Positions 5,592 through 11,832 of a DNA stretch of 64,000 nucleotides are shown here, one piece after another (the stretch's first letter is position 1; each line of letters opens with the position of its first letter). Position numbers and translations under genes: made by a program. This stretch comes from a bacterium (GTDB lineage: Bacteria > Electryoneota > Electryoneia > Electryoneales > Electryoneaceae), in assembly GCA_963675295.2 (NCBI GenBank), contig CAXXKJ010000002.1, positions 2,496,001-2,560,000 on the forward strand. The letters run 5' to 3'. Below the pieces are notes generated by a model, which did no database searches, was not told the origin of the DNA, and saw only the letters and a program-made list of their open reading frames with translations.

Positions 5592-6074
5592 GCAGATCCC
5601 GAGACCGGTAGCAGTTCTGAAACGGATGGCAGAACGGTTATAATCACAGTTGCTACGACGCCTGTAGTGGTTGATAAATCCCATGAATTCCATGGAGGTC
5701 GCTGATTGTACAAGTCGCCTAGCGATAAAATCGAAACGTGAAGCCAGGAAATCCTCGCAATTCTTAAAGCTTGGAAATGTACAAGAAATAGCGAAATACC
5801 TTCTTAAGTTTTCGGGATACGTTTTACAGAGTGTCCCGCTTCTTATGTCTGAAACACGAAAGATCCGGAACATTGTGGTACTTCATTTGCAATACGGCTC
5901 GAAGAGTCGAAAACACGAATGTGTGACGCAAGACACTTGGATCTGCGCTGCGTTCGGTGTATTGTTGGTTCTGTAAGTTAGGAATGCCTATCAGAGGACC
6001 CGGCGCTCACCGGACTGATATGGTCGATCAACGTAGAACCTGCCACGGCGCAGGGATTTTTGGAGGATGTTACG

Positions 6075-6908
6075 ATGAAGAAACTGAGTGTGTTTTCTTT
6101 CCTTGTGCTGCTGTTGGGCTTGTCGATCCTGCCGGTTTCGTCGTTCGCGGAGACGAATCCGCAGACTGAAACGGCGTGGGCGGGTGAGTATGAATTCCCG
6201 GGCAGTAACTGGGCGCTGTATTTCACCAAGATGATCCATTGCAACCCCGGTTGCGCGAATCTCGATACCTACACGCTGTGGGGCGGCCAGAACATCAATG
6301 TTGGCACGGTCAAGGTGATCAACCAGCCGTTCGGGAACGACATCTTTGTCCAGATCGAAACCCACGATGGGTGGAAGATGATCGAAACGCATGTTGGTTT
6401 CGGCAACGATCTTGAGGACATCCCCCAGAACGGTGGCGGCAACCCGATCCCCGGCCAGTTCCAGATCAATGAAACTCATGATCCTGGCGTCACGATCGTG
6501 ACGTACCAGATCCCGGTACCGGATGGCTACTGCGGTTTTGAAGGCTACATCGCGACGCATGCCGTCGTGCAGCAGGGTGGCAATGTCCAGTCGCAGCGCG
6601 GCGAGCAGATGGATGTCTTTGCGGCGTCCGAGTCGCTGCCGGCGACGTACGAACTGGCGCAGCCGTACCCGAACCCGTTCAACGCGTCCGCGACAGTCAG
6701 CGTGAACCTGCCGGAAGCGGCTCCGCTGACGGTTGAAGTGTTCAGCGTGACCGGTCAGAAGGTTGCGACGTTGGCCAATGGCGTGGTTGGTGCCGGCCAG
6801 CATGAGCTGCACTTCAACGCGACGAACCTCGCTAGCGGTGTGTACTTTGTGCACGCGATGGTTCCGGGTCACCTGAACGAGATGAAGAAGGTGATGCTGG
6901 TTCGTTGA
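6075..6908 (+). CDS. Secreted protein with T9SS type-A-like C-terminal sorting domain
   Basis: Signal peptide MKKLSVFSFL...; C-terminal YPNPFN...VFSVTGQKV...LASGVYFV...KKVMLVR. Confidence 0.85.
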   Translation: MKKLSVFSFLVLLLGLSILPVSSFAETNPQTETAWAGEYEFPGSNWALYFTKMIHCNPGCANLDTYTLWGGQNINVGTVKVINQPFGNDIFVQIETHDGWKMIETHVGFGNDLEDIPQNGGGNPIPGQFQINETHDPGVTIVTYQIPVPDGYCGFEGYIATHAVVQQGGNVQSQRGEQMDVFAASESLPATYELAQPYPNPFNASATVSVNLPEAAPLTVEVFSVTGQKVATLANGVVGAGQHELHFNATNLASGVYFVHAMVPGHLNEMKKVMLVR

Positions 6909-7282: not shown

Positions 7283-8722
7283 TCATTTTTCCCAATACGT
7301 CTTTGTCAGCAGCACGAGCACGGTGTACAGCTCGAGACGGCCGGCGATCATCAGGAAGGAGAGGATCCACTTGGCGAGCATCGGCATGTGGGCGTAATTC
7401 TCGGCGGGTCCGACCTCACCCAAGCCCGGGCCGATGTTGCTGAGGCAGGCGATGGTGCCGATCATCGAGGTCATGTGGTCGACGCCGAGCAGTGCCAGTG
7501 CGAAGGTTCCTGTCGCGAACAGCAGGGCGTAGAGCAGGAAGAACGCGAGCACATTCTGCACGATGTTCGCGCTCAGCACTTTGCGTCCCATGCGAATCTT
7601 GTAGATCGTGTTCGGATGGATCAGACGATGCAGTTCGATCCGTGCCTGTTTAAACAGGATCATCACGCGCACGGCTTTCATCCCGCCGCCGGTGGATCCG
7701 GCCATCCCACCCATCAGCATCAGCGCGACCAGCAGGATTTGCGGGAAAAAGTGCCACAGCTCGAAGTCGGCGGTGGCGTAGCCTGTCGTGGTGCCAATGG
7801 ATACGGTCTGGAAGGCAGCTTCGCGCAGGGCGAGGAGGAACGGCAACCCGTCCAGCAGACGGAACCCGGTTATAACCAGGCTTGCGATCACCATCACGCC
7901 GAGGAAGAAGCGGAATTCGACACTCTGCCAGTACCGTTTGATCTGCCCGCGCATGGCGTAATAGTGCAGGCTGAAGTTGACCCCAGCGATGAACATGAAC
8001 AGTGTGATGATCCAGTCGAAGTAGGCCGACTGGTAGTGCCCGATGGAGGCGTTTTTCGTCGAAAACCCGCCGGTCGCCATGGTGCCGAACGCATGGCACG
8101 CGGAGTCGAACCAGTCCATCCCGCCGAGCATCAGCAGGCCGATTTCCGCAGCTGTGAGGATAACGTAAACCACCCAGAGGATTTCAGCAGTCCCGCGGAT
8201 GCGTGGGGTAAGCTTGTCTGCGGTTGGTCCGGGCGATTCAGCTTTGAACATCTGCATCCCGCCAACGCCGAGAAACGGGAGGATGGCGATGGAGAAGACG
8301 ATAATCCCCATGCCGCCGATCCAGTGGGTGAAGCTGCGCCAGAAGAGGACGCCGTGCGGCAATCCCTCGATCTCGGTCAGGATTGACGCTCCGGTGGTGG
8401 TGAAACCGCTGGCGGATTCAAAAAATGCGTTGGTGACGGAGGGAATCGCGCCGGTAAACAGGAACGGTAGCATCCCAGCGAGACTGATTGAAAGCCAGCC
8501 GAAGGTGACGACGGCAAACCCTTCGCGGATATCGAGGTCGCGGTGTTTGCGGTTGAACCAGATGAACGCGAGACCAGTCAGCGCGGTGACGCCTGCCGCG
8601 GCGAGAATGCCGAGCGCGTCACCGTCTCCATAGATCAGTGCCACTCCGACCGACAGCAGCATCGATGCGGCGACGAAGACGAGGATAAAACCGATGGTTC
8701 GTAATGTGGCGCGATAGTTCAT
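7283..8722 (-). CDS. trkH: Trk potassium uptake membrane subunit
   Basis: FESASGFTTTGAS, HWIGGMGI, ATGGFS, GSTGGGMK, GRLE motifs. Confidence 0.96.
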   Translation of the reverse strand: MNYRATLRTIGFILVFVAASMLLSVGVALIYGDGDALGILAAAGVTALTGLAFIWFNRKHRDLDIREGFAVVTFGWLSISLAGMLPFLFTGAIPSVTNAFFESASGFTTTGASILTEIEGLPHGVLFWRSFTHWIGGMGIIVFSIAILPFLGVGGMQMFKAESPGPTADKLTPRIRGTAEILWVVYVILTAAEIGLLMLGGMDWFDSACHAFGTMATGGFSTKNASIGHYQSAYFDWIITLFMFIAGVNFSLHYYAMRGQIKRYWQSVEFRFFLGVMVIASLVITGFRLLDGLPFLLALREAAFQTVSIGTTTGYATADFELWHFFPQILLVALMLMGGMAGSTGGGMKAVRVMILFKQARIELHRLIHPNTIYKIRMGRKVLSANIVQNVLAFFLLYALLFATGTFALALLGVDHMTSMIGTIACLSNIGPGLGEVGPAENYAHMPMLAKWILSFLMIAGRLELYTVLVLLTKTYWEK

Positions 8723-8725
8723 TGC

Positions 8726-8760
8726 AGAGGAATGAGGTATGAGGTATGAGGCCTGAGGTA
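8726..8760. repeat. Heptamer tandem array (TGAGGNN x5), left arm
   Basis: agaggaa tgaggta tgaggta tgaggcc tgaggta. Confidence 0.9.
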
Positions 8761-8770
8761 AAACATCGGA

Positions 8771-9145
8771 TCACCCTTTTTCAATCTCTAACCGAGCACC
8801 GAAAGATCGAATATAACCACGTAACGTTTTGATTGTTTCAGTGATCATTGTATTGATCTGAGAAAAAACAGCTTCTTCCGTGAACTTCAACCTGTAGGCC
8901 AGGGACCACTGGTACTCGACCTCGCGAAGTGAAGCAAAAGCTGTGTGAAGGAATCGCAACGTATCTTGATCTGTCGGTCTGCCAAAGCCCTCTACGATAT
9001 TAGACGGAACCGAAACAGCTGCCCTTCGAATTTGTGAGACAAGTCCAAACCTTTCATCCGACGGAAACTGCCTGGTTGCCTGATAGATCTCGACTGTGAG
9101 AGTGTCTGCCAGCTGAAACGCCTTTAGTGAACGATGATCTCTCAT
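8771..9145 (-). CDS. Four-helix-bundle protein (23S rRNA intervening-sequence protein family, Avd-like fold)
   Basis: FPSDERFGLVSQIRRAAVSVPSNIVEG family signature; strong AAGGAG RBS; visibly AT-richer than its neighbours. Confidence 0.92.
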   Translation of the reverse strand: MRDHRSLKAFQLADTLTVEIYQATRQFPSDERFGLVSQIRRAAVSVPSNIVEGFGRPTDQDTLRFLHTAFASLREVEYQWSLAYRLKFTEEAVFSQINTMITETIKTLRGYIRSFGARLEIEKG

Positions 9146-9162
9146 TATGGATCTCCTTTCTT

Positions 9163-9197
9163 TTCCTCACGCCTCACACCTCACACCTCATACCTCA
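9163..9197. repeat. Heptamer tandem array (NNCCTCA x5), right arm, inverted relative to 8726-8760
   Basis: ttcctca cgcctca cacctca cacctca tacctca. Confidence 0.9.
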
Positions 9198-9203
9198 AGC
9201 CTG

Positions 9204-10550
9204 TCATTCAAACAGCTTCATCGCTTTACGGCTGGCGTCCGGCGTACAGAACAACACAACACGGTCTCCTACATAGATTTTGGTGTCTCCGACCGGGATG
9301 ACACCCTGGCGTTCGTGCTCGACCGCTACCACGATCGAGCCGGCAGGGAACTTGATGTCCCGGATCTCTTTGCCGACGACCTTGGAATCTGCGCTGACCT
9401 GGAACTCGAGTGCCTCGGCGTTGACGGCTGCCATATGGCGCAGCGAAACGATACGTCCGAAACGGATGAACTTGAGGATCGCGTTCGAGGTCAACAGGCG
9501 CGGGTTGATCGCTATTTCGAGCCCGATGGTACGGATGATCGGGGGATAGGCGGCGTTGCTGGTCAACGTGATAGTGCGCGGGACTTCGAGATGCCGGGCG
9601 AGCAGACTGGTGACGATGTTGTCTTCGTCATCGTCGCTCAGCGCGGCGAAGATATCCATGTCGATGATGCCTTCGCGACCGAGCAGGTCGATATCAGACA
9701 TCTCACCGATCACGACCTCGGTTTCGGACAGTTCTGCGGCGGCTTCCTCACCGCGTACCGGGTCGGTTTCTACCAGTTTGACCTGCAGGTCCTTGAACTG
9801 CTCGAGCTCGGCCGCGACCATGCGTCCGATGGAGGTCGCGCCGTAGAGCATGACGCGGTGGCTGGTGTCGACGGTGTGCCCGGCGAGGCGAAAGACCTCA
9901 TTCAGGTGTTCGGTGCGGGCGGAAACATAAACATCGTCCCCGAGCAGGATGTGATCCTGTCCGCGTGGAATGATGGTTTCGCCGTCACGGCTGATGGCGA
10001 CGAGACGGAACGACAGCTTGTCCTGCTGCACGTCAATTTCCATCAGCTGCTTGCCGATCATCGGCGAATCTGCCTTGATTTTCAGGCCGACAATGGCGAT
10101 GTGCTGTTCGCAGAAGGTGATCATTTCCAGCACCTGCGGGTAGCGCACGAGCCGGACAATTTCCTTCGTCGCCTCGTGTTCCGGGTGAATCACGAGGTCA
10201 ATACCGAGATCGGAGGAATCGAGGAACGACTGTTCGGAGGAGAATTCGCGATTACGTACACGGGCGATCTTGGTCTTCACTCCGAACTGTTTCGCAATCA
10301 TGCAGGCAAGGATGTTGACCTCATCGACGGTGGTGACCGCGATGATCATGTCCTTGTCCTGAATTTTCGCCTCACGCAGCACGGACGGACTGGTGCCCGC
10401 GCCCTCGATCGCCATGACGTCGAGCTGTTCCTCGATCATCGCGATACGGTGAGGATCCTGGTCAACGACGGTGATATTGTGGTTTTCCCGGCTCAGAAGA
10501 CGAGCGAGGTGCGAACCGACTTCACCGGCGCCGATGATCAGGATATTCAT
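9204..10550 (-). CDS. trkA: Trk potassium uptake NAD-binding subunit
   Basis: MNILIIGAGEVG, two RCK_N/RCK_C pairs; start 1 nt after the serS stop. Confidence 0.96.
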   Translation of the reverse strand: MNILIIGAGEVGSHLARLLSRENHNITVVDQDPHRIAMIEEQLDVMAIEGAGTSPSVLREAKIQDKDMIIAVTTVDEVNILACMIAKQFGVKTKIARVRNREFSSEQSFLDSSDLGIDLVIHPEHEATKEIVRLVRYPQVLEMITFCEQHIAIVGLKIKADSPMIGKQLMEIDVQQDKLSFRLVAISRDGETIIPRGQDHILLGDDVYVSARTEHLNEVFRLAGHTVDTSHRVMLYGATSIGRMVAAELEQFKDLQVKLVETDPVRGEEAAAELSETEVVIGEMSDIDLLGREGIIDMDIFAALSDDDEDNIVTSLLARHLEVPRTITLTSNAAYPPIIRTIGLEIAINPRLLTSNAILKFIRFGRIVSLRHMAAVNAEALEFQVSADSKVVGKEIRDIKFPAGSIVVAVEHERQGVIPVGDTKIYVGDRVVLFCTPDASRKAMKLFE

Positions 10551-10551
10551 C

Positions 10552-11832
10552 TCAGACTCCAGCAATCTGGTCGAGTCCACCCATGTAGTTCTGCAGGGCG
10601 GCGGGGATCCGTATCCGGCCTTCCGGCGTCTGATACGTTTCCATGACAGCCACCATCAGGCGGCTGGTGGCGAGTCCGGAACCGTTTAAAGTGTGCGGCA
10701 GTTCCGGTTTGCCGTGATCGCCGGCACGGTAACGCAGGTTCATCCGGCGGGCCTGGAAGTCGCGAAAGTTGCTGACGCTGCTGACTTCGAGCCAGGATCC
10801 CGTTCCCGGCGCCCAGACTTCGATATCGAAACAGCGGGCCGCTCCGAACGACATTTCCCCGCAACACAGGTCGAGTACACGATAACGCAGCTTGAGCCGT
10901 TCCAGAATTTCGGTCGCATGGCCGAGGATTTCCAGCTGTGTCTGCTCGGATGTTTCCGGCTCGACGATCTGCACCAACTCCACCTTGTTAAACTGATGCA
11001 CGCGCAGCAGACCGCGTGTATCCGCGCCGTACGCTCCCGCCTCACGGCGGAAACAGGCGGAATATGCGGTGTATTTCAACGGCAACATGTCACCGTCGAC
11101 GATCTCATTGCGGTGCATGTTCGTGATCGGCACTTCGGAGGTCGGGATGAGGAACAGGTCATCCTTCTCCATCAGGTACATGTCCTCTTCCAGCTTTGGC
11201 AACTGGGAGGTACCGAACGCGGAGTCGCGGTTGACAGCAAACGGGACGTACAGTTCGTTGTAGCCGTGCTCACCGGTCTGAATGTCGAGCATGAAGTTGA
11301 TCAGCGCCCGTTCCAGCCGTGCGCCCTTGCCGACGTACAGCGGCCAGCCACCGCCGGTGATTTTCGCTCCACGGGGCATGTCGAGGATGCCGAGACCTTC
11401 CGCCAGCGCGAGGTGATCCTGCAGTTTGAAGTCCGGTGCTGGCTCATCAGGCGTCCATTCACGGACTTCCAGATTTTCGGCTTCGGTCAGGCCTTCGGGC
11501 GCGTTCGGATCGGGCTCAGCAGGCCAGTTGGAGAGCAGTTTGTCCAGCTCGGCGCGAACGTCGCGTTTCTCGTCATCCAACGCGGCAGCCTGTTCGCGCA
11601 AGCTGCGGGCGTGATCCATCTCTTCCTGCGCGTCGCGGCCGGCTTTTTTCGCCATGCCGATCGCCTTGGACGCCTTGTTCAGCTCGGCCTTGAATTCATC
11701 TCCGCGCTGTGTCATCTCGCGCCAGCGAGCGTCGAGTTCGAGAGCCTTGGCGGTGTCGGCGTCAAAACCCTTTCGGGCAATGGCGGCCTTGACATCGTCG
11801 GAGTTCTGGCGCAGGCGTTTTATATCATGCAT
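10552..11832 (-). CDS. serS: Serine--tRNA ligase
   Basis: LIPTSEVP, CFRREAG, RVHQFNKVE, HTLNGSGLA; likely start MHDIKRLR. Confidence 0.98.
   Translation of the reverse strand: MHDIKRLRQNSDDVKAAIARKGFDADTAKALELDARWREMTQRGDEFKAELNKASKAIGMAKKAGRDAQEEMDHARSLREQAAALDDEKRDVRAELDKLLSNWPAEPDPNAPEGLTEAENLEVREWTPDEPAPDFKLQDHLALAEGLGILDMPRGAKITGGGWPLYVGKGARLERALINFMLDIQTGEHGYNELYVPFAVNRDSAFGTSQLPKLEEDMYLMEKDDLFLIPTSEVPITNMHRNEIVDGDMLPLKYTAYSACFRREAGAYGADTRGLLRVHQFNKVELVQIVEPETSEQTQLEILGHATEILERLKLRYRVLDLCCGEMSFGAARCFDIEVWAPGTGSWLEVSSVSNFRDFQARRMNLRYRAGDHGKPELPHTLNGSGLATSRLMVAVMETYQTPEGRIRIPAALQNYMGGLDQIAGV

Follow-up and report, generated by a model that had tools for sequence, protein, structure and literature searches.

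A PF05635 gene framed by inverted heptamer arrays between trkA and trkH: a probable intervening-sequence-type cassette with counterparts across phyla

How does a small gene enclosed in two inverted arrays of tandem heptamers come to lie between trkA and trkH, where close relatives have a spacer of only 3 nt, and what purpose might its arms serve? The question is raised by a 64,000-nt stretch, hereafter the window, of a genome of the family Electryoneaceae (G000:C2:2496001-2560000, G000 being the genome that carries the window), and positions for this locus are those of the window. The element is rather likely to be a promoterless, transposase-less cassette of the intervening-sequence type, lodged in an mRNA operon spacer and akin to the open reading frame (ORF)-bearing intervening sequences (IVSs) of 23S rRNA. 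Judged from sequence, the finding is real and more general than this locus, the cassette belonging to a multi-phylum class with self-complementary tandem-repeat arms.

The layout described in an earlier note on this DNA, in which the minus strand carries in turn the trkA stop, an arm, a 124-aa ORF, a second arm and the trkH ATG, was confirmed by reading the sequence, and profile matches identify the flanking genes as TrkA and TrkH. The upstream host gene trkA (458 aa, 9204..10580, on the minus strand like all features of the locus; NF007039, 7.8e-132) ends in a TGA at 9206-9204 and is followed, as read from the sequence, by a 6-nt spacer, CAGGCT (9198..9203), and by the G-rich 5' arm (9163..9197), which consists of five tandem TGAGGnn heptamers (TGAGGTA, TGAGGTG, TGAGGTG, TGAGGCG and TGAGGAA). 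A 17-nt leader (9146..9162) devoid of promoter-like sites contains AAGGAG ahead of the ATG of the cargo ORF (8771..9145), whose 124-aa product is a four-helix-bundle protein of the family PF05635/TIGR02436. A 10-nt spacer (8761..8770) separates the cargo stop from the C-rich 3' arm (8726..8760), five tandem nnCCTCA heptamers complementary to the 5' arm (TACCTCA, GGCCTCA, TACCTCA, TACCTCA and TTCCTCT), and the 3-nt spacer GCA (8723..8725) then leads to the ATG at 8722 of the downstream host gene trkH (479 aa, 7283..8722), which in relatives starts 3 nt after the trkA stop. The cargo is AT-richer than its neighbours, as had been remarked, with a GC content of 0.464 compared with 0.592 for trkH and 0.579 for trkA (0.58-0.59), and the claims that trkH has no visible Shine-Dalgarno sequence and that the cassette has no transposase were upheld by the lack of a purine-rich stretch ahead of the trkH ATG and of any transposase inside the element. 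A scan of 8500-9500 found no promoter-like or terminator-like sites, and no Rfam family matched within 8400-9500.

The two arms pair unit for unit over 35 positions, comprising 29 Watson-Crick pairs, 2 G-U pairs and 4 mismatches, in agreement with the ~35-bp stem proposed by the earlier note. The register suggested there is likewise seen, with TGAGGCG, the single C-variant unit of its arm, opposite GGCCTCA, the single G-variant unit of the other. The arm-arm helix was present in both the minimum free energy and centroid structures of a 531-nt fold (z = -3.70; 0 of 100 shuffles folded equally well), and the calculated energy of the arm duplex was -59.5 kcal/mol on the sense strand and -48.2 kcal/mol on the antisense strand. 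With the helix closed, the trkA stop and trkH start would be brought within 6 + 3 = 9 nt, close to the ~10 nt anticipated. The pattern TGAGGNNTGAGGNNTGAGG, with at most one mismatch, had six matches in the window, all within the two arms, for an expectation of 0.01. The arms are built of head-to-tail 7-nt intergenic units, as in STRR-like arrays, and since each unit of the 5' arm contains TGA, the 7-nt period provides stops in all three frames. Complementary borders forming a stable stem around an ORF are a property that the cassette shares with the 23S IVSs; a location inside a 23S rRNA helix is not, the cassette sitting between trkA and trkH.

Comparison of the trkA-trkH junction among relatives, the check proposed in the earlier note, indicates that the cassette was inserted. 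The trkA gene was recovered in 30 of the 41 genomes searched, G000 included. In the closest relative (G001, TrkA 96% identical) the junction reads GAG TAG CTG ATG AAC TAT CGC, i.e. a stop, 3 nt and the trkH start, and in two further members of the same genus it reads TAA ACG ATG (G003) and TAA TCG ATG (G002). These empty sites imply that, in the G000 lineage, a cassette of ~480 nt was inserted into a 3-nt spacer or took its place, as the inserted-cassette reading had supposed, and on this comparison its arrival is placed after the split of the G000 species from its closest sampled relative. As with 23S IVSs, presence among close relatives is sporadic, and other sites likewise alternate between filled and empty. 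Inverted heptamer-like arrays, e.g. AAATCGT ... GATTTTT, also follow trkA in two other families of the phylum (L022 in G023 and L023 in G018), on contigs too short to show the content between or beyond them.

The cargo is a clear member of its family, scoring 110.7 bits against PF05635 (E 5.2e-32, curated cut-off 33.8) and 110.3 bits against TIGR02436 (E 5.1e-32, cut-off 24). Its nearest solved relative is 2GSC (E 3.6e-17), and both 2GSC and 2RLD, a further relative, are entries with five chains. The residues R41, S45, N49 and E52 correspond to the RxxxSxxxNxxE family motif quoted in a passage of PMC3936711 and are invariant in the six paralogs of the genome. By analogy with characterised relatives, the cargo protein is probably ring-forming and RNA-binding. 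Across seven compared pairs, dN/dS of the cargo genes was 0.02-0.15 in four and dS was saturated in the other three (for trkA, dN was 0.025 and dS 0.61), indicating that the cargo genes are kept by purifying selection. Two orthologous cargo pairs between G000 and G001 (L003/L131 and L006/L127) had a dS of 1.8-1.9, approximately three times the trkA value of 0.61, with low dN; allele replacement or a higher mutation rate in cassettes could account for this, the genes being small and the estimate noisy. Phage carriage was considered and rejected, there being no match among 50,697 phage records.

The architecture of the trkA-trkH locus is repeated throughout the genome. All six PF05635 genes of G000, whose paralogous products are 45-58% identical to the trkA-trkH cargo, are framed by inverted tandem arrays, the units of which mostly differ between cassettes: nnTCAGT/ACTGAnn, the 10-mer GTAAAAGAYA, TGAGGTn (in two cassettes), TGGTCTA/TAGACCA and AGGGCTC/GAGCCCA. 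The flanks of the paralogs, which the earlier note had expected to bear such arms, therefore do so in every case, and those of distant relatives do so too. Flank-complementarity scores for the six genes ranged from 22.5 to 39.5, while among 651 other small ORF calls of the genome, used as a control, seven scored at least 13 and one at least 18. That one is an IS200/RAYT-like gene with inverted repeats of its own. Two such small genes, called by eye from their translations, were observed in the genome (G000:C2:4386671-4387129 and 4003906-4004367), and the strong inverted repeats flanking the former (score 33) make it the only control that rivals the cassettes.

The survey was extended to loci beyond the genome, arms being counted as significant when the score of a locus exceeded all 20 of its shuffles. 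In a multi-phylum sample of 80 loci on one-genome-per-species contigs, 76 were evaluable (four had short flanks) and 56 passed, 46 of these with an arm period of 7, 8, 14 or 16. The phyla sampled included Verrucomicrobiota, Desulfobacterota, Nitrospirota, Planctomycetota, Acidobacteriota, Chloroflexota, Bacteroidota and Gammaproteobacteria, among others. In five further genomes of the window's own phylum (G019, G024, G027, G030 and G037) 27 of 30 cassettes passed, as did 58 of 70 evaluable loci from a metagenome sample of 80 (the other 10 had short flanks or contained N). Arms of TCAGGAG or AGTAGGG type frame the copies carried by Nostoc plasmids. These surveys show, at the level of sequence, that inverted tandem-repeat arms frame the PF05635 family across phyla. 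Two PF05635 genes of G027 lie 1.5 kb apart and are separated by ordinary host genes, and an integron-like cassette array was accordingly rejected. No paper linking the PF05635 family to inverted heptamer arms was found in the literature; the family comments of NCBIfam and Pfam, which lay outside that search, may say more.

A repeat-rich genome might place an ordinary small gene between generic heptamer microsatellites by coincidence, and G000 is indeed such a genome, with 337 arrays of period 7 compared with two of period 8 and two of period 11. These arrays comprise 92 distinct units, are mostly intergenic, are enriched between convergent genes and tend to lie near upstream stops; 23 of them fall into two canonical unit classes (15 ACACCTC and 8 ACCTCAT) that include the unit of the trkA-trkH cassette. 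Such a coincidence is barely conceivable and is already contradicted by the paralog, inverted-pair and array controls: all six paralogs score at least 18 compared with 1 of 651 control ORFs, arms are present across phyla and also in genomes with 0-2 solitary arrays per 100-kb sample, and five of the 11 strong inverted array pairs of G000 enclose PF05635 genes. Among the remaining pairs, four enclose 62-124 nt in which no ORF was called, and two extend over 2.7-2.9 kb; two cargo-less pairs were read, one of them among the four with short gaps, and both have terminator-like hairpins in the gap. A weaker pair (score 15) of inverted GAGTGnn/CTCACnn arrays was seen around an ORF of ~120 aa, hydrophobic by eye and not of PF05635 (G000:C2:3927028-3927619), from which it appears that arms can enclose other cargo. 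A relation between the load of solitary arrays and PF05635 copy number was considered and rejected: in 100-kb samples from 12 genomes there was no clear relation, the counts being 0, 0, 0, 2 and 1 in five genomes free of the family and 0, 2, 3, 0, 1, 0 and 3 in seven that have it. The solitary array load is lineage-specific.

The cassettes are found in operons, as the earlier note had argued from the one locus. The sites in G000 are fliI-fliJ, ribF-rpsO, trkA-trkH and the spacers before purD and before xth, with secY-adk occupied in a relative, and all six cassettes of G000 lie in tight spacers and are co-directional with the downstream gene. Across cassettes with arms and sufficient flank, neighbours were co-directional in 71 of 89 cases upstream and 70 of 89 downstream. 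Relative to the upstream stop codon, the 5' arm has a median start of -1 nt (51 of 71 within -10..+15), and the median distance from the 3' arm onward to the first start codon in the downstream frame is 15.5 nt. A stop triplet occurs in the units of 36 of 63 upstream arms compared with 25.3 expected, and with a period of 7, 8 or 10 a stop triplet in each unit yields stops in all three frames.

Comparison of orthologous spacers reveals turnover at these sites. At G000:C2:1949387-1949442, an arm hairpin without cargo is formed by three units of 5' type and one of 3' type with a small loop between them, and the same site is filled by a PF05635 cassette in G001, in G003 and in G007, the last belonging to another genus (L125, L117 and L124); the hairpin is thus probably, on its sequence, a cargo-deleted relic. 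The secY-adk spacer is filled only in G007 (L120), the corresponding spacer of G000 being without arrays, and at three further sites with a cassette in a relative G000 has unrelated solitary arrays or a cargo-less inverted array. These patterns of filled and empty sites indicate that cassettes are gained and lost at intergenic hot spots, and that at least some cargo-less arrays derive from cassettes. The L120 cassette has more than 20 GTCAGAG units per arm, with a 5' arm that begins right at the stop codon of secY.

The two arms of a cassette change together. When 5' arms were matched with all 3' arms, a cassette's own 3' arm was the best of 93 partners for 45 of 93 cassettes and among the top three for 64, with a median arm score of 18.5 for own pairs compared with 8.0 for cross pairs. 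At orthologous sites within the genus, arm changes are compensated across all units: the fliI-fliJ site has TCAGTnn/nnACTGA in G000 and TCGGTnn/nnACCGA in G001, the purD site has TGAGGTn/nACCTCA in G000 and G001 and TGAGTnn/nnACTCA in G002, and in G003 a cargo closely related to that of the purD site has TGAGCTG/CAGCTCA arms. This covariation indicates that pairing, rather than sequence, is conserved. The arms also have a strong polarity: G outnumbers C in the upstream arm at 48 of 56 loci of the multi-phylum sample and 56 of 58 of the metagenome sample (104 of 114 in total), and the G-rich arm comes first in nine of the 11 strong inverted array pairs of G000. As the arms are inverted copies, the G-rich arm is first on whichever strand is read 5' to 3', so that the polarity points to a strand-wise process; a symmetric DNA cruciform offers no reason for such a rule. 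Candidate explanations are co-transcriptional folding that never exposes the C-rich, Rho-loading arm, purine-rich stretches ahead of the cargo start, and the mode of arm synthesis.

Taken as an intervening-sequence-type cassette, the mobile unit would consist of the PF05635 gene together with its two inverted arrays of tandem heptamers, with the cargo read from the host operon transcript. The arms would zip together in the transcript and loop the cassette out, leaving the trkA stop and trkH start 9 nt apart at the base of the helix and limiting polar damage to the operon. By analogy with the 23S IVSs, the long double-stranded RNA helix may be a substrate of host RNase III, a gene for which is present in G000. 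The predicted pentameric cargo probably binds structured nucleic acid of its own element, as Avd does. Complementarity of the arms would be kept mainly by concerted evolution at the DNA level, through slippage within arrays and conversion between arms, and not by RNA-specific selection; it looks as if slippage and conversion are what maintains it.

Several observations weigh against this reading. No target-site duplication is recognisable in the comparison of filled and empty junctions, and no close donor of the trkA-trkH cassette was found among relatives and metagenomes, where the nearest cargo is 61% identical. Approximately one quarter of relatives have no significant arms (20 of 76, 3 of 30 and 12 of 70 in the three surveys), and because the surveyed loci are mutually related the counts overstate their independence. 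Heptamer arrays are not private to PF05635 cassettes in G000, most of the 337 being solitary, and for only 11 of the 318 merged arrays does a strong inverted partner lie within 3 kb (2 in the control), which shows that arrays exist without cargo. Among sequencing runs, the stretch was listed only for DNA contigs from four runs of one study, with no joints, variants or ends, and for no RNA run, a result that has no bearing on expression. Finally, the strand-specific wobbles emphasised by the earlier note stood only in part: the two G-U pairs are present on the sense strand of this cassette, but they do not generalise, since among 66 cassettes with an arm score of at least 13 there were 95 mismatches of G-U type compared with 125 of A-C type on the sense strand (26 compared with 25 loci). 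The two wobbles are therefore no signature of the family, the mismatches lend no support to an RNA-level constraint, and a DNA-level reading fits equally well.

Such a DNA-level alternative would have the arms act as hairpins or a cruciform, or as structure-defined ends, recognised by a host or trans-acting recombinase or a replication-repair process that inserts, deletes and homogenises them, the RNA helix being a by-product. Complementarity that is Watson-Crick only, with no excess of G-U over A-C, is consistent with this, as are concerted changes across every unit of both arms, gain and loss at fixed hot spots between genes, one site having different arrays in sister species, the cargo-less arm hairpin at a site filled in three relatives, and the presence of IS200/RAYT-like genes in the genome. 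However, the arm sequences differ among the six cassettes of G000, making a sequence-specific transposase unlikely, there are no near-identical copies and no target duplication, and the polarity together with host co-orientation points to a strand read 5' to 3', as in transcription or translation. Overall the DNA-level alternative is a serious possibility, though an unlikely one.

A second alternative, slightly less likely still, is that the arms serve mainly as arrays to which the cargo pentamer binds, for autoregulation or to protect or package its own RNA or DNA, with the helix gripped by the protein. The five-chain entries 2GSC and 2RLD and the Xanthomonas S23p, a toroidal homopentamer according to a report cited in the consulted sections of PMC4990558, would suit such a role, as would the Avd pentamer, which in the text available from 10.1101/2023.10.23.563531 binds an RNA stem-loop and works on RNA with pairing flanks. 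That the cargo is kept by purifying selection and constantly accompanied by arms is also in favour, and the cores TGAG and TCAG are enriched in the units, occurring in 114 and 46 of the 318 merged arrays compared with 21.8 and 8.6 expected. Against it, L003 and L004 share TGAGGTn arms at 58% protein identity, whereas the arms of L122 and L123 differ at 83%, so that arm type does not track protein identity, and there are hundreds of solitary arrays, besides at least one enclosed cargo of another kind, that lack a PF05635 protein alongside.

Among described elements, the intervening-sequence-type cassette most closely recalls the ORF-bearing 23S IVSs of Leptospira and Coxiella, with which it shares the PF05635 family, a length of ~430-480 nt, stem-forming borders and a sporadic, insertion-like spread. 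The Coxiella IVS is described in the sections of PMC4990558 consulted as a selfish element of 428 nt with an S23p ORF and inverted-repeat borders, cut by RNase III in mid-stem; three tandem GACAGAT heptamers, varying in number among strains, precede its ORF, a further likeness to the present cassette. An old proposal that the ORF of the IVS serves mobility is also cited there. Unlike the 23S IVSs, the trkA-trkH cassette lies between protein genes and not in helix 9, 25 or 45, and both of its arms are tandem 7-mer arrays; moreover, the cutting of an mRNA differs in its consequences from the fragmentation of an rRNA held together by the ribosome, and the cassette is known from DNA alone. The period of 7, the intergenic location and the position nearer the end of the upstream gene are shared with the heptamers of cyanobacteria (STRR), Xanthomonas and Beggiatoaceae. 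The GGGAATC arrays of Xanthomonas include 70 and 75 convergent pairs (in the part of PMC4692102 seen), and the TAACTGA repeats of Beggiatoaceae stand just upstream of start codons (in that of PMC4679880); in G000, by contrast, inverted pairs at gene-length spacing enclose a PF05635 gene, and a term search of the available text of the two papers found no link to a PF05635 or S23 gene.

The likeness to Avd, the accessory protein of diversity-generating retroelements (DGRs), rests in the cargo, a homologous four-helix-bundle protein that scores 25.5 bits against the Avd profile NF033474 (E 1.3e-5), below the cut-off of 80. All five protomers of the Avd pentamer take part in gripping an RNA stem-loop of 11 bp, and the DGR RNA depends on the flanks of its template forming a duplex (both from the portion consulted of 10.1101/2023.10.23.563531). 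The cargo does not belong with the DGR accessory proteins: its score falls short of the equivalog level, and neither a DGR reverse transcriptase nor template/variable repeats occur near the cassette. The sole reverse transcriptase of G000 belongs to a type II-A retron with an NDT effector gene alongside (L133, G000:C2:3513528-3517076), ~1 Mb away, and retro-mobility by way of this resident enzyme was found to be unsupported. MITEs (miniature transposable elements with inverted repeats) and integron gene cassettes resemble the present element in small size, lack of an internal transposase, inverted ends and an ORF that has no promoter and is read from outside. They differ in that its ends are not conserved among copies, with neither near-identical copies nor target duplication, and there is no attC or integrase context as for integron cassettes. 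A DNA transposon of MITE or insertion-sequence type was rejected, the arm units being mostly different, the cargo 45-58% identical and target duplication lacking.

Residence in operons may also bear on the reported association of the family with CRISPR-Cas. A passage of PMC3936711 places 18 genes of the PF05635 family inside cas loci, e.g. between cmr3 and cmr2, an occurrence that agrees as well with cassettes living in operons as with a function in CRISPR. The association noted in parts of PMC3936711 and PMC10910872 may therefore reflect cassettes lodged in cas operons, and as a guess, the repeat arms may also have been picked up as arrays.

A joint reading that would unite these elements is speculative and quite improbable in its entirety. 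PF05635 cassettes would represent the autonomous part of a widespread class of mobile elements, as yet undescribed and defined by structure, with self-complementary arrays of tandem 7- or 8-mers for ends and an Avd-like pentamer that handles the arm helix of its own element. The polarity from a G-rich 5' arm to a C-rich 3' arm would record how the arms are made or used (e.g. addition to 3' ends from a template, or the need to keep a C-rich, Rho-loading stretch from being exposed in transcription), and many solitary heptamer arrays, such as those of STRR type, those of Xanthomonas and Beggiatoa, and those that extend the helices of rRNA and RNase P RNA, would be relics or non-autonomous derivatives.

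Elsewhere in the window, a 282-aa ORF on the plus strand (6060-6908) ends in ~80 residues that presumably resemble a type IX secretion sorting domain.

PF05635, a large family whose function is unknown, still bears the name of a 23S rRNA curiosity. The presence of framing arms in many phyla and inside essential operons points to a general class of elements with a testable design rule, in which the arms pair, the G-rich arm comes first and the arms start at a stop codon. This would offer an origin for at least some bacterial heptamer repeats and a simpler reading of the PF05635 genes inside cas operons. It further points to a natural means by which an operon could take in a gene and suffer little polar damage, and to a possible role for the Avd fold beyond diversity-generating retroelements.

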